This document shows, one piece after another, positions 3,029-54,070 of a stretch of DNA of 64,000 nt. Below the pieces are notes generated by a model. That model did not search any database, had not been told where the DNA came from, and saw only the letters and a program-made list of their open reading frames with translations. Origin of the DNA: Escherichia coli (GTDB lineage: Bacteria > Pseudomonadota > Gammaproteobacteria > Enterobacterales > Enterobacteriaceae). Location: NCBI RefSeq assembly GCF_003018255.1, contig NZ_CP027440.1; one strand, given 5' to 3'. Every line of letters starts with the position of its first letter. The first letter of the stretch is position 1. Position numbers and translations under genes: made by a program.

Positions 3029-4433
<1,405 letters not shown>

Positions 4434-4435
<2 letters not shown>

Positions 4436-4503: not shown

Positions 4504-7500
4504 TTACTGGAAGCAGGTCACCAGACCCGGTTTATTTTTTATTAGCGTGATACTACAATCCTGCGCTCCAGTACCTTCGTCCATCCCACACTGTTGAGAG
4601 GACAAATAAGGAAAACTGGGTGAAGACGGCCATCCCAGTGAATTAAAAACAGTATGCAACAACTCTAATTCATTGTATGTCGGTGCATTTTCTATGCTGC
4701 CACACTGCCTTGCGATATCCCATTTACTGGCATCAATGATATGTGCAGAAGCCCAGTTTTCGTAGTTAATAATCGGTGAGGATACGGGATTAGCCCCGGA
4801 CGGCAATTCCGTCGTTAACAACGGTCGATGTAGCGATTTACTAGTCACCACTACCGTGTCTGCCATATGTCCCCAAAAGTGCGCCGATGAAACATTTGGG
4901 CTGGTTGGCACCGTAAAAATAGCATCCAGCGTGTCTGTCGCGGAAGCGTAATTAGCCAGAGTAACCGTCAGTGGCATTTTATAACCAGGGGTATTATCCT
5001 GGCGGAGCGTAAAACTTGCCGTCCCATCCGCGCCTGTCATGCCACTAATGGTATTACCGCTTTCACTCAGCGTAACAGCCGAACCTGATAACGGCTGAAC
5101 GACGAGATCGTCCATCGCCACTACATTGCCATACAACGTTGCCCCAGCGTTACGCGGCGATGCCTCACCACGTTTCAAAGTAAATTCAACATTCGGCACC
5201 GTATTCCCGGCGCTGTCTTTCACCGTCACGGTTACGGACATGGCTTCGCCTTTTTTCACTTTCGCCGCCTGAGTGGCTGCATCAAACGCTGTTGAGGTAA
5301 GTGTGACGCTGGAAACGGTTGAACGCGCGTTAGCCAGGCAAGGCTGAAATGATTTTGTTGAACCCGTATACAGCGTGCCATTTCTCAAATCAACCGACTG
5401 GTCTTTACCATCGGCGGATTTATCCTCTGCCCACCAGGTGTAATACGCAGGCCAGCCAGTTTCAGTGACAAACGTGTTATTCGGATAACGCGCAGACAAC
5501 GAACTTAAATCATTGAATAGTGGCTGCCTTGCTACTTCACAAGGGCTCACACTCGCATCTGATTTCTGTGTTGGGGTAAAGTACGGCCAGTCTTCATTAT
5601 TGTTATTGATCTTGCCGACGCCAGAAGTCGATGTCAGTTCACTCCACAATTTCGGGCGTTCAAATACCGCACCATTCACTGCCGTCAAGGTTGCTGGCAT
5701 ATGCCCCCAGTAGTTAGCCTTCGCAGAATCCGGGCTGGTCACTACCGTGAATATCAGGTCCTGATTAGCCGTAACCTGCGGATTTCGCGCCAATGAAGCT
5801 GTAAACGGCGTTACCAGACCGACGGTGTTATTTTGGGTAACGTTGAACGTTATCGTGCCATCACTGCCGGTGAAGCCGCTCCATGCCGACGTATTCTGGT
5901 TGAAGGAGATACGCGCCGATGTTGGGGTGACTTCATCTAAAATGAGATCATCTACGGTATTGGAGGATACAGAGATCCCTGAACGGCTTTTCGCCTGCAC
6001 GCGCTTGAGCGTAACACCTTCGCCGCCAACAGGATTACCATTGGCATCTTTGATCGTCACCACGATGGGAAGCATCTCACCTTTTTTCACAGATGACGTG
6101 GGGGTACCACCATTGCTGGCAGTTCGGCCCTCATCATAGGCAGTCGATGACAGCGTAAGGCTTGCTGGTGCCGAATGTGGCTGCGTCAGACAGAGCATTA
6201 AAGCGTATCCATTAATAGTCGTCGTCGATTGTCCCGTTTTCAAATTAATGACGCCGTAATACCACGTCAACGCGTCAGTGGTGCTCATTTCATAAGTCCA
6301 CCAATTTCCACTTCCGGCAGTTATAGGCAACCCCAAATCTGTCAGTATTGTCCCGCCTGGATGATCATTATATAGCCCCTGTAACTCATTGAGACGCGGC
6401 TGATACTCAACCGGGCAATCCGGCGTAACTTTATTGGTATAAAAAAGGTATGACCACGACTCATTATTATTACTTACCGAGGACCCCAAGGTCGCTTCTG
6501 CTGCCAGTAGCGGTCGTTTAAAGGTCACCCCCGCCCTACTGGTAAACGTGTCGGGCATATGACCCCAGTATTTTGCTTTCGGTGAGTTCGGACTGGTTAT
6601 CACAGTGAAAATAACATCCATCGTGGCACTTTTTGTGGTGTCGCGCATCAATGTTGCAGTGAGCGGAGTTGCCAGCCCATAAGTCTCGTTTTGCGTCACA
6701 TCAAAAGTCGCTTTACCATCACTTCCTGTCGTCAGAAGTGCCTGTGCCCCATTATTATAGAGTGACATGTTTACTCCGGCAGGGGTGACCGGCACGATAG
6801 TAAGATCATCATACGTAGAATCTAGCCTGTTTTTTGCACGATCCAACGCAGTCCCGCGTATGAGATTAAAGTTTGCGCCTGGCAACAGATTTCCTCCGCT
6901 ATCCCGCACAATCACCGTCATCCGGATCGCCGTACCTTTCGCCGCCGTTGCACTAGGGCGACCATCGTTGCTGGCCGTTTTCTCCGCATCCAGTGCCGTG
7001 GAGGTCATCTCTATAGAAGCTGCCACTGCATGAGGGTTTACCAGACAGGACACAAATGCCACGGTGTTTGATAATGCCCTGGAGCTTGATCCATTCGATA
7101 AATTAATAGACTGATCGTACCAGACGTTCGCGTAGGCAATTTTATCGTAAGCCCACCAGGTGTTAGTCAGCGGAAGGCCTAAATCGGTCCCTATCGCACC
7201 ATTAGGATGTTCACTGTATAACTCTTGAAATTCGCTTAATAACGGTTGATAAGGTTCGCCGCAGTCTGATTTGCTGACATCATTTTTTGCTGCCGTATTC
7301 AAAGAAAGCCATGATTCATTATTAGCCATGGTTGACTGCCCCGCTGGATGCTCGGCAGTAAGCAATGGCCGCTTAAAGGCAATTCCCGACCGGGTAGTAA
7401 ACGTTTCAGGCATATGCCCCCAGTAACTTGCCAGTGGCGTATCCGGGCTGGTTATGACGGTAAACATGACCGGTAATTTGTTGGATTCTATCGTCAGCTG

Positions 7501-10500
7501 ATACAACTGGGCGTACATATTGGTTACCAGGCCCATAGAATCATCTTGTTTTACCGTAAAGGAGGTAGTCCCGTCCGCGCCAGTCACCCCATAAAGCAGG
7601 CTTGAAGAACTATTCATCCTCGCAGAAGCGCCTGCCGCGTTAATTACCGTAATCGACTTATTTATCATCTCGGCATTTTGACGGTTCTTCGAGCCTTCAC
7701 GTCTGAGAATAAAGGGGACATTGGGCACGCTATTTCCCTGCGTATTTTTAGTCACCACGCGAATCACCGCGTCTTCGCCTTTTTTCACTTTCAACGCACT
7801 CAAGGTGTCGTCAACTTTGACAAATTGCGCCGTATCATTCGCCTCAACAATGATCTGACTGGCAACGGCGACAGGCGTGGTCCGGCAGCTCAGTAATGCA
7901 CCACCAGATGAGGGCATCTGCGTTTCATCTCCTGTCTTCAGCGAAACGACATCATACGTAAAGGTTTGAGTGAACGTATCTGCAACGGTATTCGAGATAT
8001 AGAACCTCGACACTGGCCAGCCAATAGCATCATGTAATGCGCTACTCCCCTGGTGCGCATAAATGGCCCTAAGTTCATTGTCAGTTGGAACATACTCCGC
8101 GCCACAACCATTTATCGAGGTATCGTTAGCCTGGCCCGACGGGAACGTAGACCAGGCCTCCCCCTCTTCCACCAGGGTACCGATACTGGTGGTAGCACTA
8201 TTCTCGTCCCTCAGCAAAGGCCTTCGATAAATAAGACCGTCATCGCCTGTCGCCGTTTCAGCCATATGCCCCCAGAATTTGGCTTTTGGCGAATCCGGGC
8301 TGGTAAGCACCGTAAAGACAACGGGAAGCGTCGATTTAGTGCTGCTGGAGGAATCCAACGCTGCCGTGAGTTCTGTTTTTAGCCCGGTAGTCTGGTCTTG
8401 CTTCAATGTGAAAGTGGTGATGCCATCAGCCCCCGTCACGCCATAAATAACCAGGGTCGTTGAAAGAAAATCATCTTGAGTATTTCCCCAGGCATCCGTT
8501 ACCGCCAGCGAAGCAATCGACGTCGTAGTTGACACATTGGCCCTGTTCACGCTGGTGTTTCGTTTGAGGGTAAATGCGGTATTTCCCACAGGGTTACCCT
8601 GCGCATCTTTAGTGGTCACTCGTAATACGGCTTCTTCGCCTTTTTTCGCTTTGACAACATTATTCGTACTGTCAAATTTTGTGGGGTCTGCAGCTTCAAG
8701 AACAATTTGGCTTGCCTTAACAATCGGCGTCGTCTGGCAGGTAAGCAGTTCTTTTGTGGCAGATGGAATTATCGAACTGGTGCCTGAACTGAGATTGACG
8801 GCCTTGAAGTCACGCTGTTCCAGGCTACTACTACCTGTTGTGCTGGAAAGGTAACTTGAGGCGACGGGCCAGCCCTGAACCGTTTTCATCGCATTGCCGC
8901 GGTTGGCTTCATACAATGACTCCAGCCCGGCCTGGGAGGGAACATATTCACTACCACAACCATTAGAGGCTGTGCTTATAGCCTGGGTTTGGGTAAATTG
9001 CGCCCAGTCTTCATTCTCTTCTGCAATCGCTGTTCGACCCGACGTACTGGATAACTCTTTCAACAATAATGGGCGTTTAAAGACCGTTCCATCTGCAGCC
9101 GTCACTGTTTCAGGCATATGCCCCCACATTTTCGCCTTATCGCTGTCCGGGCTGGTGACAACGGTAAAAATGGTATCGAGGGTCGCTTTTTTCGTTGTGT
9201 CTGAATAGAGCGCGACGGTCAGCGACGTTTTTGTGCCATGGGTATCCGGGCGGGTAATAGTGAGAATTTTAGTGCCATCGCTGCCGGTCATCGCGCTGTA
9301 TGCTGCGGCGGTATCATTGAGCGAAGTTTCATCCGCCAGGCCACTATTGATCACAACCGGCGCAACCAGCGCATCACCGCCACCGGCAATGTGTTTTTCG
9401 TTTGATCGGGTATAACCATCGCCACGCTTCAGCGTAAAAGGCATATCACCCAATGGATTGCCCTGAGCATCTTTTACCGTCACCTTCACCTGTAGCGTTT
9501 CGCCTTTTTTCAGCTTCGCCGCATTTGCTGCCGCGTTCCACTGCGCCGGGTCCACCACTTCCAGCGTAATGCTGCTGGCAGGATTGTTAGCCGTCGTCAG
9601 GCAACTGACATAAACCGCCGTGCTACCGCCAACGGTCCGCGCGCCATCGTTGAGGGCTATGGTGTAGTAATGCGGCACCTGATCCGCGGGCGAACTGCTC
9701 CAGTAGGGCTGACGCTGCGTTGGCCAACCGTGTACCGTTTGAACGGCGTTACCGCTGTTAGCATCATAGAGCGCGTTAAGCTGGGAACGGCGTGGGAGCA
9801 TATTGGCACCACAGCCACCTTTACTGGTGCTGGAAGTGTTGGCCTGGCTAACGCGCGACCACACTTCGTTATTTTCCGTTAATGTGCCGTCCGGGCTGGA
9901 CACTTCCGCAGCCAGCCGGGGTCGGGCAAAGGTTAATGCATCGACGGTAATCGTCTCATCCATATGACCCCACATCTGCGCGCCAACCGCATCCGGACTG
10001 GTGAGCGTAGTGAAAATCACATTGTAATTAACAGTATTGGGAATATAGGAGTTTACAGGCGCAATATTCAGCGGCGTCGCTAAGCCCACACCTTGCGGTT
10101 GCTTAATTTCCACAGTAGCAAAACCCTGCGCATCCGTAGTACCGGCATAGACTAAAGACGGTTGCGATGTTCCGTAGAGTGTGCCATTCATCTCGATTGC
10201 GCCGCGGGTTGGATCATCAAAACCTGTAGTCTGCCCCTGACGATTTTTCCCCATATCTTTAGTGATGGTGAACGCGGTATACGGCACGGGCGCATTATTC
10301 AAGGCATTAAAGGTGCGTACCGTCATGGTAATCGTTTCACCCTCTTTAGCCTGCGCTCTGCTGCTTGTGGAAACATCATGATCGGTGGTCGCAGCAATCT
10401 GGGCGACCATCTCATTGCCCGAACAAGAAAGGTAGTTTTGCTTAAAGCCGGAATAGGTGTCGATGTTGCCCGTGGCCAGGTTCACCGACGCGTGCGACGT

Positions 10501-12558
10501 CTCTTCCACCGCACTAAGATACGCTTTTTGCAACGTTGGCCAGCCATATTCGGTGCCGATGACATTGGCTGGATGTGCGGCAAACAAACTGTGCAATGAG
10601 CTTTGGCTCGGAATATGACCTAAACCACACTCAGCCTGCATACTGCTATTCTGATCAAACAGCGCCCAGTCTTCGTTATTTTCCCGCACTGCTCCCAGTT
10701 CGTTGTCGGTTTCATCCGCCAGCCGTGGGCGTTTAAAGATATTATTCGCTTCAATAATGCCTAACATATGTCCCCACATCCGCGCTTTGTCGGAATCAGG
10801 GCTGGTGATCACCGTAAAAATAACGTCTTTCTCATCCGAGGCGGTAAAATCACTGCGCATTTTCGCGGTGATGTGTGTTTTCACCCCCACGCCGCCTGGC
10901 TGGGTCAGCGTCAGAGAGGCCTCTCCGTTAGCATCAGTGATCCCTTCATAGGTATGCGCGTCAACTTTGCGAACGTTACTGCCACCATCAATTTGTACCG
11001 GATGCGTCTCCCACGCAGCGTCAGTTTGATTCTTACGGTTAACACCGTCATCCAGATGCAGCGAAAAGTAGTAGTAAGCCAGCGGCTGATCGTTGTTCTT
11101 GCTATCGGTAATCGTCAGGCGTAAAGAAGCCTCTTCCCCCACCTTTACTTTCATCGCTTTTATCGTCGAATCATAACTGCCCGGCGTCAGTACCAGCTTC
11201 GGTTCAACATCGGGCGCTTCTTTATCGACACAGCTCACAATAAACGTCGTATCGTCCGGTTTTTGCGCTTCGCTGCGGTTCGAAACATCCGCCGCATGGT
11301 GCTGCCCGCTCATCCCCGCCAGTGATGACCAGTAGTAGTTACCCTGCATCGGCCAACCAGCCACATCCTGCACTGACGTTGGCACCACCGTCGCCAGCGC
11401 ACCGAACTGACGCATTCCGGGCAAAATGTCGCAATGTTTATCCGCACCACTCCAGGTAAAGGTGGACCAGGTTTCATTGTGATCGTTAACCGTACCGTCT
11501 TCATTATCGACTTCCGCCGCCAGTTTTGGTCGACTAAAAGTGTAATCACGGGCCTTCAGCGTATCGGGCATATGACCCCACATTGTGGCCTGCGGGACAT
11601 CCGGGCTGGTGAGGACGGTAAAGATCACTGCCGTTTCACTGGTCTGAGCAATACCCGCGAGGCTCGCGACCAACGGCGTTTTTACACCAGGGGCGTTGGC
11701 CTGGGTGACCGTAACCGTGGCAACACCATTCGCATCGGTAGTACCACGATATTCCGTCGCGGTGGTGGTTAATTCGGTCGTGCCCAGTTTTACCGGCGCA
11801 GTATTGTTCACTACACCCTGGCGGTTTTCAGCATCTTTGCGTTTGATAACAAAAGGAATATTCCCCACAACATTACCGACGCAATCTTTGGTGGTGACCG
11901 TTAACGTGATACTGCCGCCAACCGTCGTTTTCGCCGCACCGGAGGATTCGTCATAGCCCGCGGCGCTGACGGAAATAAGGTCACCCTGCGCGGGCGCAAT
12001 CTTCAGCGTCACTTTCTGATCGGCGAGGGTCAGAACACTTTCATAGGGATAGCCCGTCGAGGTAAGTAGATATAACAGCGGCATGGTCTGCTGGGGGTCT
12101 GGCTGCGCCCAGGCGATCAGCGAACGCCCGGCAAGGCCCTGTGCGCAAAATGAGCGATCTGCGACTGGCTGTGGGTCCAGTAAGGTGTCCGGCGTCGCGG
12201 CATCCGCCCAAACTAAAGATACTGTCGGTGGCGTTTGGTTTTCCCAACGTGGTGTGGCAATGATATCGCCTTCTCTGTCTTGCGGGTTGGTGACGAGCAA
12301 TTTAGAGACGCTAACATCCGCGCTGAATTCACTCGGTTTAGCGGTAAACGCTACCTCATGCGTCTTTGCAGGATCCAGAAAGACACTGCCCTGGTAGACG
12401 GGTATGCTGGCACTGTCGGCGGTGGGCACGGTACCGTTAAATTCGCCGACCGTATCTGAAGAGTCTTGCCATGCAGATTCTGCCCATGCCCCCCCAGGCA
12501 GCATTGCGCTTATCAGCAATGCGCAAAACACAAGGATTTTATTCAGGGTCAGGGACAT
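4504..12558 (-). CDS. ratA: giant secreted repetitive Ig-like protein, RatA family (2684 aa)
   Basis: Uninterrupted 8055-nt ORF with GGAG 8 nt upstream of the ATG. The N-terminal Sec signal is [26 protein letters not shown]|ES. It contains nine reiterated modules, each holding a Big_1/invasin-like segment (KKGE..L.V.V.KDA.GNP...FTLKR...G.TG.DG...). It lies downstream of sinH-sinI between xseA and yfgJ, as in the Salmonella CS54 island. Confidence 0.85.
4507..12006 (-). repeat. nine tandem divergent coding modules (~804-858 bp each) inside ratA
   Basis: The protein motif (I/V/M)FT(V/T)xTSP(D/N)...(M/F/Y)WGHM recurs nine times. Its WGHM codons appear on the + strand as CATATGNCCCCA at 11569, 10765, 9961, 9115, 8263, 7411, 6556, 5698 and 4864. 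The spacings are 804, 804, 846, 852, 852, 855, 858 and 834 bp. Apart from this motif the copies differ substantially at nucleotide level. Confidence 0.9.
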
Positions 12559-12602
12559 GACAGAAACTCCACCGGTTGTTAAACGGACGCTTGTCGCATC
12601 AA

Positions 12603-12637
12603 CATATTTTGCTTAATCCGGGATTAAGCAAAATATG
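12603..12637 (-). promoter_or_regulatory. 35-bp perfect palindrome (17-nt arms, 1-nt centre) in the sinI-ratA spacer
   Basis: catattttgcttaatcc-g-ggattaagcaaaatatg. It lies 45 nt upstream of the ratA ATG and downstream of the hairpin at 12644-12667. It could be an RNA stem-loop (processing or stability) or a dimeric-protein operator. Confidence 0.5.
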
Positions 12638-12643
12638 CGGAAA

Positions 12644-12667
12644 CAGCATTCCCTTGCGGGAATGCTG
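12644..12667 (-). terminator. terminator-like hairpin just after sinI (possible attenuator before ratA)
   Basis: cagcattccc-ttgc-gggaatgctg is a perfect 10-bp stem with a 4-nt loop, 12 nt after the sinI stop. On the coding strand only TTTCC follows, so termination is likely partial at most. Confidence 0.4.
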
Positions 12668-12678
12668 CTGAGTACGCG

Positions 12679-13656
12679 TTATTTGTGTTTGTAAATAATG
12701 TGAAGTTTGTACCCCTGTACCCCGTCGCCGTTGGTCGGGATGGTAAGAGCTTCTTTACCATCGCGCGCAGGGCCGTTAAGGTTGGTTCTGGCGTCTTCGT
12801 TGGTCGCAGGGATGACCAGATTGTTATTATCGAAGCTTGAGTTGACGATACCACCCGAGGTGCCGAGCTGTTGGCTGCTGCCAGAAAGTACCCAACGGAA
12901 GTCATAATTGGCGGTAACGTCAGCATCGGTATCCGCATCAAACTTGCCATTTTTGTTCTCATCCGAGTACAGTTTGGCCACGTAGGTTTTGCCAAGTTCG
13001 ATTGGCGTACTGCCGTTGATAAGGTTGATACTGGTACCATCAACAAAGATGGCGACTTTCAGGTTCTGGTTAACTACCGGCCCTGGCGCAACGTTGTCGC
13101 TGTCGCTTCCGCCGCCGCTGGCAGTGGAAATGTCATAAAGATGCAGCGCAGTCCCGACGTTTGGCGTACCGGTCTGCGTGGTCGGCGTAATTTCAATACC
13201 GATATAACGACCACGGTCGTCATCGGTAAGAGTGTAACTGGTCACCTTCGTTGCCAGCTCTTTCGGATCGCCCCCCTGAGCGTCCTTGTAGCTCATCCAG
13301 CGGATAGTATCGATAGTCTTTGCGTTATCGCCCAATCCCCCAAGATCCACGTCGCCTTCGGTATCACCAATTTCCCAACTTACGGTTAATTTATCACCCG
13401 AGTAAAGACGCTTGTCCGTTTCACTGCCTGTCGGGCGAGCGCCTTTTAGATCAGAAGTCAACGTTACATGGTCGGCATCTGTCGTAGCGCTTCCCCCTTC
13501 CGAATAGAGCCACGGAATGGTTCCCTGGAAAATATTGGTTTCGCCGCTGTCGACCCAGGCGCTTTCTTCCGCCAGCGCCACAGGTGCCACACAATAACCT
13601 GCCAGTGCCAGCGCCAATGCGATCCGGGTCAGACCGCGTCTTTTATCCTGCTTCAT
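12679..13656 (-). CDS. sinI: secreted SinI-family protein (325 aa)
   Basis: ORF with the SD AAGGAGAG upstream and the Sec signal MKQDKRRGLTRIALALALAGYCVAPVALA|EE. It sits between sinH and ratA. Its C-terminal ~130 aa are paralogous to the SinH C-terminus, and its mature N-terminus resembles that of RatA. Confidence 0.85.
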   Translation of the reverse strand: MKQDKRRGLTRIALALALAGYCVAPVALAEESAWVDSGETNIFQGTIPWLYSEGGSATTDADHVTLTSDLKGARPTGSETDKRLYSGDKLTVSWEIGDTEGDVDLGGLGDNAKTIDTIRWMSYKDAQGGDPKELATKVTSYTLTDDDRGRYIGIEITPTTQTGTPNVGTALHLYDISTASGGGSDSDNVAPGPVVNQNLKVAIFVDGTSINLINGSTPIELGKTYVAKLYSDENKNGKFDADTDADVTANYDFRWVLSGSSQQLGTSGGIVNSSFDNNNLVIPATNEDARTNLNGPARDGKEALTIPTNGDGVQGYKLHIIYKHK

Positions 13657-13710
13657 TGATGCTCTCCTTAATGAACCTTCAGCGACTGGCCGACTGGCCT
13701 TACGCCAATC

Positions 13711-15888
13711 TTATTTTTTGGTATACAGCACGCGTAAACCGTATCCCTGCAAGCCATCTCCCGCTTGTGCGCCATAGGTTTGCGCTGCTTCGCGGTTAGT
13801 GGCCGGAATCACAATGTCCTCATTGGAAGAGTTCGCCTGTGCACCCACTTCACCATTGATGCTCTTGCCGGTAAATTCCCACTTGTAGTCGTACTGCGCC
13901 ATCTCTTCGTCAGTCAGTTTTTCGACCTGCTGGAAGACACCGTCTTTATTGCTGTCACGCCACAAAACAAATCGATAAGTGTTGTTGAGCGGCAGCGGTT
14001 CTTTATCTTTACCTATCAGGTTGCTGGGTTTAGCTGCCCCCACACGATAGATAAATGCATTTAGCCCACCAATTTCTGCCCCGAGGAAAGTGACATCCAC
14101 ATAGTTACTGTCGTCGTAGGGCGCAGCTTTTGCTTTCCAGCGATAGGTGCCGGGTAAGGTACTGGAGAGGGTGACAGTGCCCTTTTCTTTATCTTGTTTA
14201 GCGATAAAAACGCAGGGGTTGTCGGTCGAGCAAGGCTTGTTGGTTAACGTCACTCGTTTGTCCTGCGCGTCGTAAAGCCGCGGCGTGAGGTTATCTTCCG
14301 GCAGCGCATCGCCATTGCGGTCGGTGTTATCGCCAAAGCTGTCGGTTACATCGAGATCCATCACCACACCATCAACGCCATCTGCCTGGGCGCTGGCTTC
14401 GTGGCTGTGGTTGTTCTCTTCCGGCACGTTCGCGATGTTATTAACAATCAACTCAATTTTACGGTCCTGCTGAACGGTGATTTCCACCACACCAGAGTTC
14501 TGTCGGTTGCCCTTTTCATCTTCCAGTGCCAGACGTACTCGCCAGGTATTGAGTTTTTCTTGTTCGGCTTTGTCAGAGCTGTACTGCCAGGCGGGCAGCA
14601 CCAGGTTCCAGTGGTTATTGTTACCCTCTGTCAGGGTATTCTCTTTGATAACCGGCATAACCAGCGTGCGGGCAGCATTGTTTTTCGCCTGCCATGACGC
14701 AGCGACAATTTTGTAGTGGTGGTTGATAAGCGCGTTAATGGTCCACTTACATTTTTCCAGCCCGACCGCCGCTTCAGGCGTATCTTTAATGACACACTCG
14801 GGGTGTTCGTTGGTGGCATCCGCTTTTAACCACAGGGTGACATCAAGCGGATCTTTTTCTTTGTATTCCAGAACAATAAAGTTATTACGCTCAACAAAAT
14901 CATGACGACTGCCCATCAACGAGTGAGCCGCTTTCACTTTATCGCTATCCAATTGATCTTTTAGCGGAACGCCGAACTGATAATTAAGAGTGGCATTAAT
15001 GCTGACATCGCTGTTATCTCCGGTCCCCGCTTTATAGTCCGCCCCAACGGTTAGTAATGGCACCGGTTGATAATTCAGTCCAAGTGTTACCGCGTAGGGA
15101 TCTTTCTCCAAATTATCCGTACCAAAAAGGGCAACTTCATCGCCGTAATATTGCTCGAAGACAACTTTGCCCCCCAGTTGCGGATAAGAAGGTAACCAGG
15201 CTTCGGCGCGAATATCCCAGCCGCGCGCAGGACGCTCCTCATAAAAATCGAAATCTTCGGAGTCTTTCCAGTCAGAAAGCGGATGATAATAGTTGCCAGA
15301 GAATTTTAAATAATCAGTCCACGCTTCGCCGCCTAAACCTAAACGGCGATGTCCTCGGGTAAAATCATAATCATAAAATATATTCCCGCCCAATAACCAT
15401 TCATTAAAATTATGTCTTACCCCAAGACCAATATTCCCGATTGTACGATCTTCTTTTCGCTGCGCAGAAAATTGACTGAAATAAACAGTGGTTTGATTAT
15501 CGTACCAGGGAACAAAATAATCGATGGAACTGCCATCCAGATCGCCGCCCTGGCCAATGGAGAGGTTCGAACGGACCTTACCGTAGGGAGAGAGAGTGTC
15601 TTCAATATAAGATTGTGCGGTTGAGGTGATTTGACTTTGCAGATAGCTTCTGGCCTGAGATTCCAGCGCCTCAGGGGTCAAGTTTTCAAACCCTTGCGTG
15701 GCGGAGTTGATGATGTAATCGGCTCCGCGCTCTTTCAGCGATTTACCCTTGTTGGTTTGTTCATCCTGCTGTGCTGCCTGGCTACCTAAATCAGGTAACG
15801 ATTCGTTTTGCTTAACATTTATCTCTGGTGCCGCGAAAGCAGCACCAGAGATAAATGTTAGAATAATACAGCGTTTCCATCGCAGCAT
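13711..15888 (-). CDS. sinH: intimin/invasin-like inverse autotransporter outer-membrane adhesin SinH (725 aa from ATG 15888)
   Basis: The ORF-track entry begins at 15918, but that codon is TTG. The ATG at 15886-15888 has AGGGAAAG upstream and yields the signal peptide MLRWKRCIILTFISGAAFA|AP. Diagnostic inverse-autotransporter beta-domain motifs are present: GWDIRAEAWLPSYPQLGGKVVFEQYYGDEVALFG and MGSRHDFVERNNFIVLEYKEKD. Compare intimin GYDIRAEAYLP...EQYYGD and LGSRYDLVQRNNNIILEY. Confidence 0.88.
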   Translation of the reverse strand: MLRWKRCIILTFISGAAFAAPEINVKQNESLPDLGSQAAQQDEQTNKGKSLKERGADYIINSATQGFENLTPEALESQARSYLQSQITSTAQSYIEDTLSPYGKVRSNLSIGQGGDLDGSSIDYFVPWYDNQTTVYFSQFSAQRKEDRTIGNIGLGVRHNFNEWLLGGNIFYDYDFTRGHRRLGLGGEAWTDYLKFSGNYYHPLSDWKDSEDFDFYEERPARGWDIRAEAWLPSYPQLGGKVVFEQYYGDEVALFGTDNLEKDPYAVTLGLNYQPVPLLTVGADYKAGTGDNSDVSINATLNYQFGVPLKDQLDSDKVKAAHSLMGSRHDFVERNNFIVLEYKEKDPLDVTLWLKADATNEHPECVIKDTPEAAVGLEKCKWTINALINHHYKIVAASWQAKNNAARTLVMPVIKENTLTEGNNNHWNLVLPAWQYSSDKAEQEKLNTWRVRLALEDEKGNRQNSGVVEITVQQDRKIELIVNNIANVPEENNHSHEASAQADGVDGVVMDLDVTDSFGDNTDRNGDALPEDNLTPRLYDAQDKRVTLTNKPCSTDNPCVFIAKQDKEKGTVTLSSTLPGTYRWKAKAAPYDDSNYVDVTFLGAEIGGLNAFIYRVGAAKPSNLIGKDKEPLPLNNTYRFVLWRDSNKDGVFQQVEKLTDEEMAQYDYKWEFTGKSINGEVGAQANSSNEDIVIPATNREAAQTYGAQAGDGLQGYGLRVLYTKK
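14854..15636 (-). other. SinH inverse-autotransporter beta-barrel plus linker region (approx. ORF residues 95-355)
   Basis: The region spans SQITSTAQSYIED... to ...FIVLEYKEKD and carries the intimin/invasin beta-domain motifs listed for sinH. Boundaries were estimated by eye. Confidence 0.6.
15813..15860. repeat. 19-bp perfect inverted repeat with 10-nt spacer inside the sinH signal-peptide codons
   Basis: taacatttatctctggtgc (15813-15831), spacer cgcgaaagca, then gcaccagagataaatgtta (15842-15860). It begins 28 nt downstream of the ATG at 15888 and encodes LTFISGAAFAAPEINV. Confidence 0.9.
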
Positions 15889-15918
15889 GCACTTTCCCTG
15901 TGACAATGATACAGTCAA

Positions 15919-16097
15919 AAATAAGCTTTAATATTGTATCCCTGATTATTCAGAAAGGCATGTCATAAAGAATAAATATACTCTTAATTATTTAAATTAG
16001 TGATTTCACTCAATTACATTAGTTATTCCACTAATAACAGATTGTTTTACCATTCACATATTAAATATAAATGATAAAACAATATATTCACATGATA
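15919..16097 (-). promoter_or_regulatory. AT-rich ~180-bp region upstream of sinH (presumed operon promoter / right island junction)
   Basis: This non-coding stretch between the yfgJ stop and sinH is visibly much more AT-rich than its flanks, with runs such as aataaatata, ttaaatataaatgataaaac and tatttaaattag. One sigma70-like pair on the - strand is TTCTGA-N16-TATTAA. No GATC sites and no simple-sequence tract were seen. Confidence 0.35.
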
Positions 16098-16313
16098 TTA
16101 AGCAATAACAAATTCAACGCGTTTTTTAGATATTAAACCGTGCCCATGTTGGCAGAAATAATCCACAACACCACAAGCTTTTAACACTTGTAACGGCTGA
16201 TGACACTCAGGGCAAAGTGCCTGGACGGTAAAGTCTTTGTCGCAAGTTGCACAGTGGGCAGTCTCGCCATTGCGTTCGAGAGGGATTTTGCAGGTTGGAC
16301 AGTTGAGTGCCAT
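16098..16313 (-). CDS. yfgJ: small double zinc-ribbon protein YfgJ (71 aa)
   Basis: The ORF has cysteine pairs CPTC, CATC and CPEC plus C..H.H. Its C-terminal half QPLQVLKACG.VDYFCQHGHGLISKKRVEF matches my recollection of YfgJ. SD GAGGAG lies upstream. Confidence 0.85.
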   Translation of the reverse strand: MALNCPTCKIPLERNGETAHCATCDKDFTVQALCPECHQPLQVLKACGVVDYFCQHGHGLISKKRVEFVIA

Positions 16314-16375
16314 AAATACTCCTCACGTGTTATTCGGTTTCCCTCTCCGTGTGGAAAGGGAAACCAGATAAGTGA

Positions 16376-17848
16376 TTACTTACTTTTCTTGATATGCTTC
16401 ATCAGGCGCTTACGTTTACGCATCTGGGTTGGCGTCAGGGTGTTACGCTTGTTCGCATACGGGTTTTCCCCTTCTTTGAACTGAATACGAATCGGCGATC
16501 CCATTACGTCCAGCGATTTGCGGAAGTAGTTCATCAAGTAACGCTTGTAGGAATCAGGCAGGTCTTTCACCTGGTTACCGTGAATCACCACAATCGGCGG
16601 GTTATAACCACCAGCGTGGGCATATTTCAGCTTCACACGACGACCGCGTACCAACGGCGGTTGGTGATCTTCAACAGCCATCGTCATGATGCGCGTCAGC
16701 ATAGAGGTCCCCACACGACGGGTGGAGCTGTCATACGCTTCACGTACTGATTCAAACAGATTACCAACACCACTGCCGTGCAAGGCTGAGATAAAATGCA
16801 CACGAGCAAAATCGATAAAGCCCAGACGGAAGTCCAGCGTTTCTTTCACCTGCTCTTTCACTTCCTGGCTCAGGCCATCCCACTTATTCACTACAATGAC
16901 AAGTGAGCGCCCACTATTGAGAATAAAGCCCAGCAACGAGAGATCCTGATCGGAAATACCTTCGCGGGCGTCAATCACCAACATCACCACGTTGGCATCT
17001 TCAATGGCCTGCAACGTTTTGATTACCGAGAATTTCTCTACAGCATCGGTGATTTTGCCGCGTTTACGTACGCCAGCGGTGTCAATGAGCACATACTCAC
17101 GTCCGTCGCGTTCCATTGGAATGTAGATGCTGTCACGCGTCGTGCCAGGCATGTCGTAAACAACAACGCGCTCTTCACCAAGAATACGGTTCGTGAGTGT
17201 AGACTTACCTACGTTCGGACGACCCACAATCGCCAGTTTGATCGGCAGACTTTGCGGGTCGAAGTCATCTTCCTCTTCTTCTTCGCCGTTTTCTTCTGCT
17301 TCAAATTGCGCCCAGTATTCAGCGTCTTCATCCACTTCTTCTTGTGGTGCGAGATCTTCCATCCACGGCAGCAGCACGTGCTCCAGCAGACTTAATACGC
17401 CACGACCGTGAGACGCGGCGATCGGGTAGATTTCCCCTAAACCAAGCGAGTAAAAATCAACTACCGCCTGATCAGGATCCAGCCCGTCAGTTTTGTTTGC
17501 CACCAGGAAGGTTGGCTTTTCGCGGGAGCGCAGATGTTTAGCAATAGCTTCATCCGCAGGCATCAGACCCGCGCGCGCATCGACCATAAACAGCACAACG
17601 TCCGCTTCTTCAATCGCCAGCAGCGACTGTTCCGCCATACGTGTCTCTACACCGTCTTCGGTGCCATCAATCCCGCCAGTATCAATACAAATAAACTCGC
17701 GGCCTTCAATTTCTGCACGACCGTATTTACGGTCACGAGTCAGACCTGGGAAATCCGCAACCAGCGCATCTCGTGTGCGAGTTAGACGGTTAAATAACGT
17801 GGATTTTCCTACGTTAGGGCGCCCGACAAGCGCGACCACAGGTACCAT
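16376..17848 (-). CDS. der: ribosome-associated GTPase Der/EngA (490 aa)
   Basis: ORF-track frame trimmed to the ATG 17846-17848 ([22 protein letters not shown]). There are two tandem GTPase domains, each with GRPNVGKST and a DT(A/G)G motif, and a KH-like C-terminus. Confidence 0.96.
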
Positions 17849-21067: not shown

Positions 21068-21177
21068 GTTTATTCTCTTTCTGAATATAAAAATGAACCC
21101 TCAACGCTTCCCTCAATGTTTCGGGAGCCATGCGGGTTCAATCATACACGGGAAGCGAGGCGCTTCCCATCACGTTA

Positions 21178-22296
21178 TTATTTTTCAACCTGCTGAACGT
21201 CAATTCGACGCGCTTCGTCCAGCTGACTGGCTTTCGCACGAATGCGCGCTTCCAGCTGATCGATCATATCGTTGTTGTCCAGACGGTCTTTGCGCACGCC
21301 ATCTTCATAGAGGCCGCTTTTCTTGTTGCCGCCGGTGACGCCGAGTGTAGAAACCAGCGCCTCACCAGGGCCATTCACCACGCAGCCGATAATCGAAACG
21401 TCCATCGGAGTGATGATATCTTCCAGGCGTTGCTCCAGCGCGTTAACCGTACCGATAACATCAAATTCCTGACGCGAACAGGTCGGGCAGGCGATGAAGT
21501 TGATCCCGCGCGAACGGATACGCAGCGATTTCAAAATATCGAAACCGACTTTGATCTCTTCGACCGGATCGGCCGCCAGCGATACGCGCAGCGTGTCGCC
21601 GATGCCTTCAGACAGCAGCAGACCTAAACCAATAGCGGATTTTACTGCCCCGCTACGCGCACCACCGGCTTCGGTGATCCCCAGATGCAGCGGCTGATCG
21701 ATTTGTTTTGCCAGCAAACGATAAGACTCAACAGCGAGGAAGACGTCAGACGCTTTCACGCTGACTTTGAACTGATCGAAGTTCAGGCGATCGAGATGAT
21801 CAACATGACGCATGGCAGATTCCAGCAACGCCTGCGGCGTCGGTTCGCCATACTTTTCTTGCAGATCTTTTTCCAACGATCCGGCATTAACGCCAATACG
21901 GATCGGAATGTTTTTATCGCGCGCACAGTCAACCACCATGCGAATACGCTCTTCATTACCGATATTGCCAGGGTTAATACGCAGACAATCGACGCCGTAT
22001 TCCGCTACTTTCAGCGCAATGCGATAGTCGAAGTGGATGTCAGCCACCAGCGGCACGTTAACCTGCTGTTTGATGAGTTTGAACGCTTCTGCCGCGTCCA
22101 TCGTCGGTACGGAGACACGGACGATATCAGCGCCAACACGTTCCAGCGCCTTGATTTGATTGACCGTTGCTTCGACGTCTGTCGTACGCGTATTGGTCAT
22201 GGACTGTACGGCGATGGGAGCACCATCGCCAATCGGCACATTCCCAACGTAAATACGTGTTGATTTTCTACGTTGAATTGGAGCCTGGTTATGCAT
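21178..22296 (-). CDS. ispG: 4-hydroxy-3-methylbut-2-enyl diphosphate synthase IspG (372 aa)
   Basis: Starts [36 protein letters not shown]. The [4Fe-4S] cysteines CPTC...C are in the C-terminal domain. Confidence 0.97.
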
Positions 22297-33941: not shown

Positions 33942-34163
33942 AAAGCAATACTCGCCAGTAACTCTCTTTTTGTCAAGCGAAAGAGAGTAATCATTGTTTA
34001 TTTAGCGTATTATCGACACCGGCCCTTTCCGCCGTGTTCGGTAATAAAATAACCTAGCTTATTAGTCCGAATTCAGACAAATATAAACAAATCCTGCTCA
34101 AAATTAAAAATACTAACCGGTAAAAGATATTACTTAAACATGTAAATTCACTTTCCTTTAAAA

Positions 34164-34263
34164 AACAAAAAACCGCCAAAATCAGGCGGTTATTTGTTGC
34201 TGGTTTGGTTCGCGGCCTTTCCAGCAGATTGTATTACCGTAGTAATGCAAGCGCGTCTCAGCG
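34164..34263 (-). ncRNA. candidate ~100-nt antitoxin sRNA, copy 2 (RyfB/TimR-like), divergent from ryfA
   Basis: - strand promoter TTGACA (34293-34298), 17 bp, GAGTAT (34270-34275). The terminator is ccgcc-tgatttt-ggcgg followed by TTTTTTGTTTTTT. The predicted 5' end cgctgagacgcgcttgc is perfectly complementary to 34407-34423 in the ryfA 5' UTR. Confidence 0.6.
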
Positions 34264-34486
34264 GACACAATACTCGCCAGTAACTCTCTTTTTGTCAAGT
34301 AAAAGAGAGTTATTATTGTTCTGTTAGTGTATTATCCACTGCGGACCTTTCCGCCGTCTCGCAAGCGGGCGCTGGCTTAAGGAAAGGATGTTCCGCGACC
34401 GTTAGAGCAAGCGCGTCTCAGCGCTTGCTATCGCGGCAATATCGCCAGTGGTGCTGTCGTGATGCGGTCTTCGCATGGACCGCACA

Positions 34487-34612
34487 ATGAAGATACGGTG
34501 CTTTTGTATCGTACTTATTGTTTCTGGTGCGCTGTTAAGCGAGGTAAATAATAACCGGAGTCTCTCCGGCAACAATTTACTGGCGGTTAACAACCTTCAG
34601 AGCAGCAAGTAA
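34487..34612 (+). CDS. 41-aa hydrophobic small protein, TimP-like type I toxin candidate
   Basis: ATG...TAA translates to MKIRCFCIVLIVSGALLSEVNNNRSLSGNNLLAVNNLQSSK. The N-terminal segment is hydrophobic and TM/signal-like. It lies inside ryfA, is below the ORF-track length cut-off, and has no obvious SD, which is common for tightly repressed type I toxins. Confidence 0.55.
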   Translation: MKIRCFCIVLIVSGALLSEVNNNRSLSGNNLLAVNNLQSSK

Positions 34613-34618
34613 GCCCGA

Positions 34619-34645
34619 ATGCCGCCCTTTGGGGCGGCATATTTT
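34619..34645. terminator. rho-independent terminator of ryfA (also abuts the convergent sseB stop)
   Basis: atgccgccc-tttg-gggcggcat followed by ATTTT. Confidence 0.8.
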
Positions 34646-41876: not shown

Positions 41877-41900
41877 TGCTCTATAAACTCCGTACATCAC

Positions 41901-41987
41901 TCAATGCAAGGAACCAGGCTACCGGCTGGATGTACGACCGTGTTTACGGAGTGTTTAGCACTCCGGCCTGATTCTGAATTCTTTTTA
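41901..41987 (-). promoter_or_regulatory. structured iscR-iscS intercistronic region
   Basis: This 87-nt spacer contains, for example, the stem-loop cggagtg-tttag-cactccg (41947-41965). In E. coli this spacer and the iscS start are the established target of RyhB-dependent differential decay of the isc mRNA. I did not map the pairing site. Confidence 0.4.
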
Positions 41988-53938: not shown

Positions 53939-54070
53939 GCCGGATGCGGCGTGAACGCCTTATCCTGCCTACCGTTCCAACACCAATTGTAGGCCTGATA
54001 AGACGCGGCAAGCGTCGCATCAGGCATCGTGCGCCGAGTGCCGGATGCGGTGTGAACGCCTTATCCGGCA
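53939..54070. repeat. BIME with three REP units between yphA and yphB
   Basis: gccggatgcggcgtgaacgccttatcc (53939-), gtaggcctgataagacgcggcaagcgtcgcatcaggc (53989-) and gccggatgcggtgtgaacgccttatccggc (54040-). Confidence 0.85.

Follow-up and report, generated by a model that had tools for sequence, protein, structure and literature searches.

An inverse autotransporter that serves separately encoded proteins presents a mechanistic problem for type V secretion. For ZirT there is experimental precedent, as secretion of ZirS requires it (PMC2270342), and Heinz et al., who likened the occupied barrel pore of ZirT to a 'Gordian knot', proposed in 2016 that SinH takes SinI and Rat-like proteins as its substrates, modeled on the ZirT/ZirS/ZirU system (PMC4943183). 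Goh et al. restated this proposal in 2019 for IatB, the E. coli orthologue of SinH (PMC6714894), and the NCBI family name of SinI is already 'autotransporter-associated'. SinH is, moreover, a leading vaccine antigen candidate against extraintestinal E. coli (PMC9937491). Here, we analyze the sinH-sinI-ratA locus at positions 4504–15888 of a 64,000-nucleotide (nt) stretch of E. coli DNA (contig NZ_CP027440.1; the window hereafter). We suggest a model whereby SinI and RatA would be Sec-exported, barrel-less members of a type Ve adhesin system built from several proteins, as in ZirT/ZirS/ZirU, and would depend on SinH for outer-membrane crossing, surface retention, or both. We put the probability of such a SinH-dependent system at about 0.5. 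In this model, SinI and RatA would be recognized through a linear motif of about 20 residues that follows the signal peptide, while RatA would add an extended rod built of nine lectin-tipped modules, each presumably the same as the tip of a fused Yersinia invasin.

Both the locus and the hypothesis are already known. The locus is the xseA-yfgJ island, that is, CS54 of Salmonella (shdA-ratB-ratA-sinI-sinH) and the 'ila' cluster, or iatB locus, of extraintestinal E. coli, which has been described as derived from CS54 (PMC12928451). The window has the same genes in the same order and at the same site beside xseA, and it differs from CS54 in carrying one Rat gene of 2684 amino acids (aa) and PRK15316 type and neither ratB nor shdA. 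A reading made earlier from the letters of the window alone (the sequence-only reading) had proposed a split inverse-autotransporter system made of a barrel protein, an adaptor and a separate giant passenger, and had taken it to be uncharacterized. The conserved three-gene unit and the build of SinI hold up, whereas the novelty does not, because the idea of SinH substrates was already in print in 2016 and 2019. What is added here is a modest new handle: the motif and a tandem RNA hairpin between sinI and ratA are defined, mutable elements with which to approach an old question rather than parts of a new system.

With ZirTSU the locus shares its general layout, in which a barrel gene is followed by genes for barrel-less, Sec-dependent proteins with immunoglobulin-like (Ig-like) domains that have sequence in common with the passenger of the barrel protein. 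The Zir system is without a giant lectin-repeat partner, and it is for Zir alone that barrel-dependent secretion has been shown. The resemblance to type Vb systems such as FhaC/FHA, in which a large adhesin bearing an N-terminal recognition element is encoded beside its separate transporter, is at most one of working principle, as SinH has a 12-strand inverse-autotransporter barrel and not an Omp85/POTRA one, and as gene order and domain families differ. Type Vb two-partner secretion (TPS) itself was rejected because Pfam identifies no Omp85, POTRA or TPS/haemagglutination-activity domain in SinH, SinI or RatA.

Shared modules in SinH, SinI and RatA

SinH is a type Ve inverse autotransporter of the intimin/invasin family with a 12-stranded barrel that probably displays three Ig-like domains of its own. 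The barrel (Pfam PF11924 IAT_beta, aa 73–346, 362.8 bits against a cut-off of 22.3, E 1.8e-108) resembles by sequence match the barrels of invasin (4e1t, E 1.8e-73) and intimin (4e1s, E 7e-65), and the full-length protein reaches 1486 bits with the SinH equivalog NF033423 (cut-off 999), whose profile begins at aa 11 of the TTG-numbered open reading frame (ORF), corresponding to the ATG at 15888. In agreement with the sequence-only reading, the passenger is short, with about 390 aa after the barrel, and Xing et al. 2023 have described it as three Ig-like domains (PMC9937491). Intimin and invasin carry a C-type lectin-like tip, a feature that is not universal in their family; in SinH, Pfam detects neither a lectin nor an InvE_AD domain, and the last domain is SinI-like. 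SinH 629–732 matches positions 197–299 of the partner_SinI profile (E 5e-21), and SinH 641–735 aligns with SinI 218–325 at 37% identity (BLASTP, E 2e-13).

SinI (NCBIfam partner_SinI, NF040711, 333 bits against a cut-off of 165) comprises a signal peptide, an N-terminal motif, an Ig domain of the IG_AIR9 type, a GGGSDSD linker and the C-terminal SinH-like domain. In its AlphaFold2 (AF2) model, two confident beta-sandwich domains follow the motif, and the block-mean predicted local distance difference test score (pLDDT) of the C-domain is ~80–95. The N-domain is distantly ZirU-like, its ZirU_fam score of 32.3 bits (E 1e-7) lying far under the cut-off of 100 and marking distant homology and not membership. 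Domains of this IG_AIR9/SCAB-Ig type occur elsewhere in 4–15 tandem copies in large proteins, one of which bears a Gram-positive cell-wall-binding CWB2 domain.

By inspection, the signal peptides of SinI and RatA are of the Sec type, with AxA sites before EESAW and ESAW, respectively. That of SinI (13570–13656) is unusually conserved: it contains LALALAGYC, residues L14, A19, G20, C22, P25 and A29 are invariant in 22 sequences, and 'LAGY' is retained even in Gilliamella and Fukatsuia. In view of the invariant Cys22, SinI was also considered as a lipoprotein; this was rejected because by inspection LAGYC is unlike the lipobox [LVI][ASTVI][GAS]C, in which Tyr at −1 is disallowed, and because Cys22 becomes A, S or T in distant members.

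The RatA-like protein scores 5883 bits with PRK15316, whose cut-off is 3870. Behind its signal peptide and N-terminal motif come an N-domain of unassigned fold (~aa 48–200) and nine repeats, in which Pfam places 9 BIg21 and 9 InvE_AD stretches. xWGHM motifs recur at intervals of 268–286 aa; repeats 1–8 have a Cys pair 67–75 aa apart while the last repeat has four Cys (2619, 2657, 2668 and 2682). One repeat (aa 208–422) aligns to residues 114–324 of PDB 5n40_A, a 'putative invasin', with E 5.6e-29, which supports the earlier description of RatA as passenger-like. The module is the same Ig-plus-lectin-like unit as in 5n40, repeated nine times over on a separate polypeptide with its own signal peptide and without a barrel. 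We take 5n40 to be the tip of the barrel-fused InvasinE of Yersinia pseudotuberculosis and the source of the Pfam name InvE_AD; RatA would then be passenger-like in the literal meaning of the word.

A co-varying motif at the N-termini of SinI and RatA

SinI and RatA have in common a motif of ~20 residues with the core T-x-x-I/F-x-G-T-x-P, which lies right behind the signal peptide on every barrel-less protein and opens the mature chain of both SinI and the downstream protein in all 22 species-level sinI loci of our comparison set. The pairwise similarity is weak (SinI 9–48 versus RatA 5–45, E 0.011). Comparison of the SinI and Rat profiles gives E 1.4e-5, is limited to ~31 columns, and returns nothing significant once the motif is removed, hhalign then yielding only a 16-column echo at a probability of 7%. 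Together with the SinI/SinH homology at the other end, this bears out the observation in the sequence-only reading that the third protein shares one end with each of the other two.

The residues W34, T40, G45, P48 and W49 of the SinI motif are invariant in 22 sequences, and yet the motif region is modeled as unstructured, with pLDDT < 50 for residues 1–32 and 37–62 in the AF2 model; a motif that is invariant in this way but unstructured fits a binding peptide. Its type co-varies between the two proteins of a locus. In the window and four relatives, both proteins have ..AW...(S/T)T.EF(Q/N)GT.P, in most other loci both have LK.G.WQ....T..I(Q/N)GT.P, and in Lelliottia both have SAG..I.GT.P. Motif similarity between SinI and Rat is 29.2 within a locus versus 20.3 between loci (permutation p ~5e-5, a value that ignores phylogeny and reflects few independent events). 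A hidden Markov model (HMM) of the motif matches only SinI and Rat-type ORFs in the six frames of the window and in all loci, and it also finds a second Rat paralogue in Leminorella that lies outside its training set (E 5.5e-5). The possibility that SinH itself bears the motif was rejected, as the HMM gives no SinH match.

Gene conversion as the source of the motif was rejected because the coding segments in sinI and ratA have 48% nucleotide identity and because their Ser codons, AGC versus TCT, are not interconvertible. These differences argue that the likeness is kept by selection on the peptide. The Rat N-terminus has been called 'highly divergent' by Heinz et al. (PMC4943183), and in the literature searchable here we found no earlier description of the motif. 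A conserved, co-varying linear motif on SinI and RatA would fit a common recognition step. A more specific and tentative idea, which we consider rather unlikely, is that the motif is the recognition element of 'two-partner' type Ve systems, either as a secretion signal that the inverse-autotransporter platform reads or as a docking strand that builds a non-covalent SinH-SinI-RatA chain. If it were a docking strand, the product would be a modular adhesin that resembles a pilus and has a type Ve protein as its anchor.

Conservation of the three-gene unit

The sinI gene lies immediately downstream of an inverse autotransporter gene in the window and in 22/22 loci, and the order sinH-sinI-rat, on one strand and with short spacers, is found in 21/22. 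The exception is Lelliottia wanjuensis, in which the third protein (L021:11407-12513) has 368 aa and is a 'mini-Rat': behind the motif it has a SinI-like N-domain, then an Ig domain of the intimin-like kind, and it ends in a lectin-like part. Hafnia carries the same mini-Rat (L034:2155-3243); in the two genera the protein has ~365 aa and the lectin-like end reads WCE..GY.LP. The length of Rat across 21 loci ranges from ~1,560 to 3,008 aa. Two matches to Rat queries whose gene neighborhoods were inspected also lay in this locus. Distant SinI-like proteins also directly follow an IAT_beta gene, in Gilliamella as a pair alone and in Fukatsuia with two SinI-like genes, at unrelated chromosomal sites, and the barrel protein and the partner of Gilliamella both still end in '..QG(F/Y).L.V'. 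The third gene is variable and encodes a giant Rat, a mini-Rat or a second SinI-like protein. Because the barrel-SinI pair recurs in distant genera while the third gene varies, we infer that the pair is the old core, with the third gene as an interchangeable adhesive module.

Among 5,426 complete E. coli genomes, sinH is present in 1,740, sinI in 1,691 and the 5' part of ratA in 1,683, and the counts per allele class are nearly equal (927, 11 and 753 for sinI; 927, 11 and 809 for the ratA 5' part). Together with the order in 21/22 loci, these counts support the three genes as a conserved unit. Between the two main E. coli allele classes, nucleotide identity is 60–80% for sinI and the ratA 5' part versus 80–90% for sinH; this suggests that sinI and rat may be swapped as a module or be under diversifying selection. 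The sinI and ratA genes of the window belong to the 'ESAW...EF[QN]GT' class, which occurs in ~930 of the 5,426 genomes.

A proposed SinH-dependent system and its alternatives

Altogether, the SinH-dependent system is supported by synteny, the near-equal gene counts, the occurrence of the pair in distant genera and the shared co-varying motif as well as by the SinI/SinH domain homology, the ZirU-like N-domain of SinI, the ZirT dependence of ZirS, the match to 5n40 and the conservation of the hairpins described below. About one in three complete E. coli genomes has the locus. Should both SinI and the 280-kDa RatA indeed be handled by SinH, the exposed antigen would be a three-protein assembly and not SinH alone, and type V secretion would gain a real multi-component branch.

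Several points weigh against this system. The passage of a 280-kDa, disulfide-containing protein through a 12-strand barrel is unexplained. IatB is reported to be surface-exposed by immunofluorescence, and its expression in K-12 in the absence of the downstream genes is enough to bring it to the surface and to produce biofilm (PMC6714894). SinH is therefore a self-sufficient adhesin, the pore of which is presumably filled by its own linker. SinH is also ~87% identical across lineages with differing SinI and Rat motifs, so that no co-variation of SinH with the motif is visible, and the relationship of SinI to ZirU is, as said, distant. In L001, L004, L011 and C. freundii, a frameshift or stop splits rat into two to three ORFs beside intact sinH and sinI; from these sequences, Rat looks dispensable or often inactivated. 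Deletion phenotypes reportedly differ gene by gene (PMC12928451). A terminator-like hairpin parts sinI from ratA, and a review reports co-transcription for sinH and sinI only (PMC12525524). Finally, we found no experimental paper on the localization of SinI or RatA in the literature searched.

Much of this also speaks for the likeliest alternative, namely that the three proteins are independent adhesins that are merely co-inherited and co-regulated. The shared ends would then reflect common ancestry of modules and not a shared machine; SinH would be a complete inverse autotransporter, and RatA and SinI would leave by type II secretion or in vesicles or would be periplasmic. That SinH/IatB is on the surface and functional alone, that rat is often a pseudogene beside intact sinH and sinI, that mutant phenotypes are gene-specific in the report just cited, and that sinI and rat are parted by a terminator-like hairpin would all be expected, and because islands pass on as blocks, synteny alone is weak evidence. 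However, distant genera retain the barrel gene and sinI as a pair at unrelated chromosomal sites, and the partner in ZirTS requires the barrel protein for its secretion (PMC2270342). Moreover, a co-varying motif in an unstructured segment, retained at 48% nucleotide identity, is hard to account for without a shared binding partner. We therefore regard mere co-inheritance as a serious but rather unlikely alternative.

The co-varying motif might also work differently from a signal for SinH-dependent export. In a head-to-tail arrangement, which corresponds to the 'adaptor' idea of the sequence-only reading, it would dock as a strand onto the SinH-type C-domain such that SinH holds SinI and SinI holds RatA in a non-covalent chain. 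The distribution of the parts is suggestive: the acceptor-type domain is present only at the very C-terminal end of SinH and SinI, the motif only at the very N-terminal end of SinI and Rat, and RatA is without an acceptor domain, as a chain terminator would be. In addition, the motif is unstructured on its own with a residue pattern that is strand-like by inspection, and a C-terminal ending of the 'DGVQGYxLxIxY' type is kept in the barrel protein and the partner even in Gilliamella. Nevertheless, the model of the SinI C-domain is a confident, complete fold in which no strand is obviously missing, SinH shows no co-variation with the motif, and the crossing of the outer membrane by SinI and RatA is left unexplained. 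We consider this arrangement improbable.

Least probable, and in our view quite unlikely, is that SinI acts in the periplasm, as an Ig-like chaperone or assembly factor that keeps the SinH passenger or RatA export-competent, akin to the PapD-type chaperones with their two domains or to the periplasmic helpers of Ig fold that Heinz et al. discuss (PMC4943183), and not as a surface adaptor: a ~30-kDa Sec-exported protein with two beta-sandwich domains, one domain in common with SinH and retention in every sinH-type locus examined, even without a Rat gene, would suit that role, but Pfam and fold searches reveal no PapD-type similarity, SinI bears the same motif as its supposed client RatA, suggesting like handling, its fast divergence relative to sinH is more typical of an exposed antigen, and its ZirU/ZirS relatives are reported to be secreted (PMC4943183, PMC2270342).

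A tandem hairpin between sinI and ratA

With the SinH-dependent system as the preferred model, the 120-nt spacer between sinI and ratA may bear on the relative amounts of its components. The spacer contains two perfect stems of 12 and 17 bp (z = -4.9; 0/200 shuffles fold as well). Both hairpins are at the same place in 20/21 other loci, L015 having only the first within the stretch folded. Compensatory changes occur in 11/30 hairpin pairs in a 16-sequence alignment across genera; the outer pairs of hairpin 1 vary as CG/UA/GC, and those of hairpin 2 co-vary around a constant core. The hairpins that the sequence-only reading had seen before ratA are thus real and conserved across genera.

Hairpin 1 is followed by UUUCC here and by UUUUCC in most relatives, a U-tract too short to be called in a terminator scan, for which an intrinsic terminator is a GC-rich stem followed by a U-run with ≥5 U in 8 nt. 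No Rfam match at gathering score was found in 12559–12678 (4227 families). We suggest that the tandem hairpin is most probably a leaky terminator or an element affecting mRNA stability, which would hold ratA expression below that of sinH-sinI. This reading agrees with the co-transcription of sinH and sinI reported in a review that cites Shea et al. 2022 (PMC12525524).

Adhesin operons are known to contain partial terminators and stabilizing stem-loops; in chaperone-usher operons, for instance, these follow the major pilin genes. As in those operons, a strong, conserved stem-loop lies here downstream of a presumably abundant gene pair and ahead of a further gene, which would fit differential expression; the differences are that two hairpins stand in tandem, that the U-tract is short and that the core of hairpin 2 is invariant. 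Across genera (window and L001–L022), hairpin 2 keeps its inner 8 bp nearly unchanged, and this palindrome could be a binding site for a protein or a small RNA rather than only an RNA stem. In Escherichia sp. E1V33 (L019:11337-11626), the sinI-rat spacer has ~290 nt versus ~110, and an insertion of ~175 nt that is rich in palindromes (by eye similar to repetitive extragenic palindromes/bacterial interspersed mosaic elements, REP/BIME) splits hairpin 1, the halves of which still pair around it; counted by itself, hairpin 1 is conserved in 20 of the 21 loci other than the window, the split one in L019 being the exception.

Features of the locus

The minus strand of the window carries three co-directional ORFs (Table 1), that of sinH extending over 13711–15918 if counted from TTG. 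The three genes and all of the parts described for them are present where the sequence-only reading had placed them. On one side, the block is flanked by guaB (1431–2966) and xseA (3059–4435), and on the other by yfgJ, der and bamB; it is 99.5% identical to E. coli JNE120442, which has the same annotations. Because xseA directly adjoins yfgJ-der in most E. coli genomes, the block is an island.

Table 1 Positions of genes, protein segments and RNA elements (window numbering unless a locus is named).
Feature	Position	Strand	Basis or remark
sinH (iatB orthologue), intimin-like inverse autotransporter, 725 aa from ATG	13711..15888	-	NCBIfam inverse_SinH; annotated sinH in JNE120442
SinH outer-membrane beta-barrel domain, aa 73-346 of TTG-numbered ORF	14881..15702	-	Pfam IAT_beta
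SinH passenger, ~390 aa after barrel; last ~107 aa (13714-14034) are the domain common with SinI	13714..14880	-	
sinH-sinI spacer, 54 nt, AAGGAG Shine-Dalgarno ahead of sinI, no strong hairpin	13657..13710	-	Sequence
sinI, 325-aa SinI-family 'autotransporter-associated' protein	12679..13656	-	
SinI mature N-terminal motif, aa 30-52, EESAWVDSGETNIFQGTIPWLYS	13501..13569	-	Common to Rat-like proteins in all loci
Hairpin 1, 12-bp GC-rich stem, GCAA loop, then UUUCC	12642..12669	-	RNA fold
Hairpin 2, 17-bp perfect stem CAUAUUUUGCUUAAUCC / GGAUUAAGCAAAAUAUG, core UUUGCUUA...UAAGCAAA nearly invariant	12602..12638	-	RNA fold
ratA-like gene, 2684 aa	4504..12558	-	NCBIfam PRK15316; Pfam 9 BIg21 + 9 InvE_AD
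RatA mature N-terminal motif, aa 27-47, counterpart of SinI motif	12418..12480	-	
RatA repeat rod, nine units of Ig-like BIg21 and Cys-bracketed adhesion (lectin-like) domain	4507..11937	-	
AT-rich stretch between yfgJ and sinH, presumed promoter region	15889..16098	-	Sequence
Split rat ORFs, E. coli isolate	L001:11472-17899		
Split rat ORFs, Enterobacteriaceae G50	L004:11468-17929		
Split rat ORFs, Citrobacter murliniae	L011:11420-16980		
Split rat ORFs, C. freundii	L023:2389-8798		

The ~210 nt 5' of sinH are very AT-rich, and the GC fraction is 0.445–0.46 for 15001–17000 versus ~0.53 around it; iatB is reported to be activated by LeuO (PMC6714894). The island abuts yfgJ-der-bamB, and the nearness to bamB, which encodes a component of the beta-barrel assembly machinery, looks coincidental, these being core genes. 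Elsewhere in the window, Rfam matches at gathering score are to sroE, IS128, ryfA, the iscRS stability element and naRNA4; the matches, at 21087–21178, 34001–34209, 34341–34645, 41878–41987 and 53992–54070, are ordinary E. coli features of the region.

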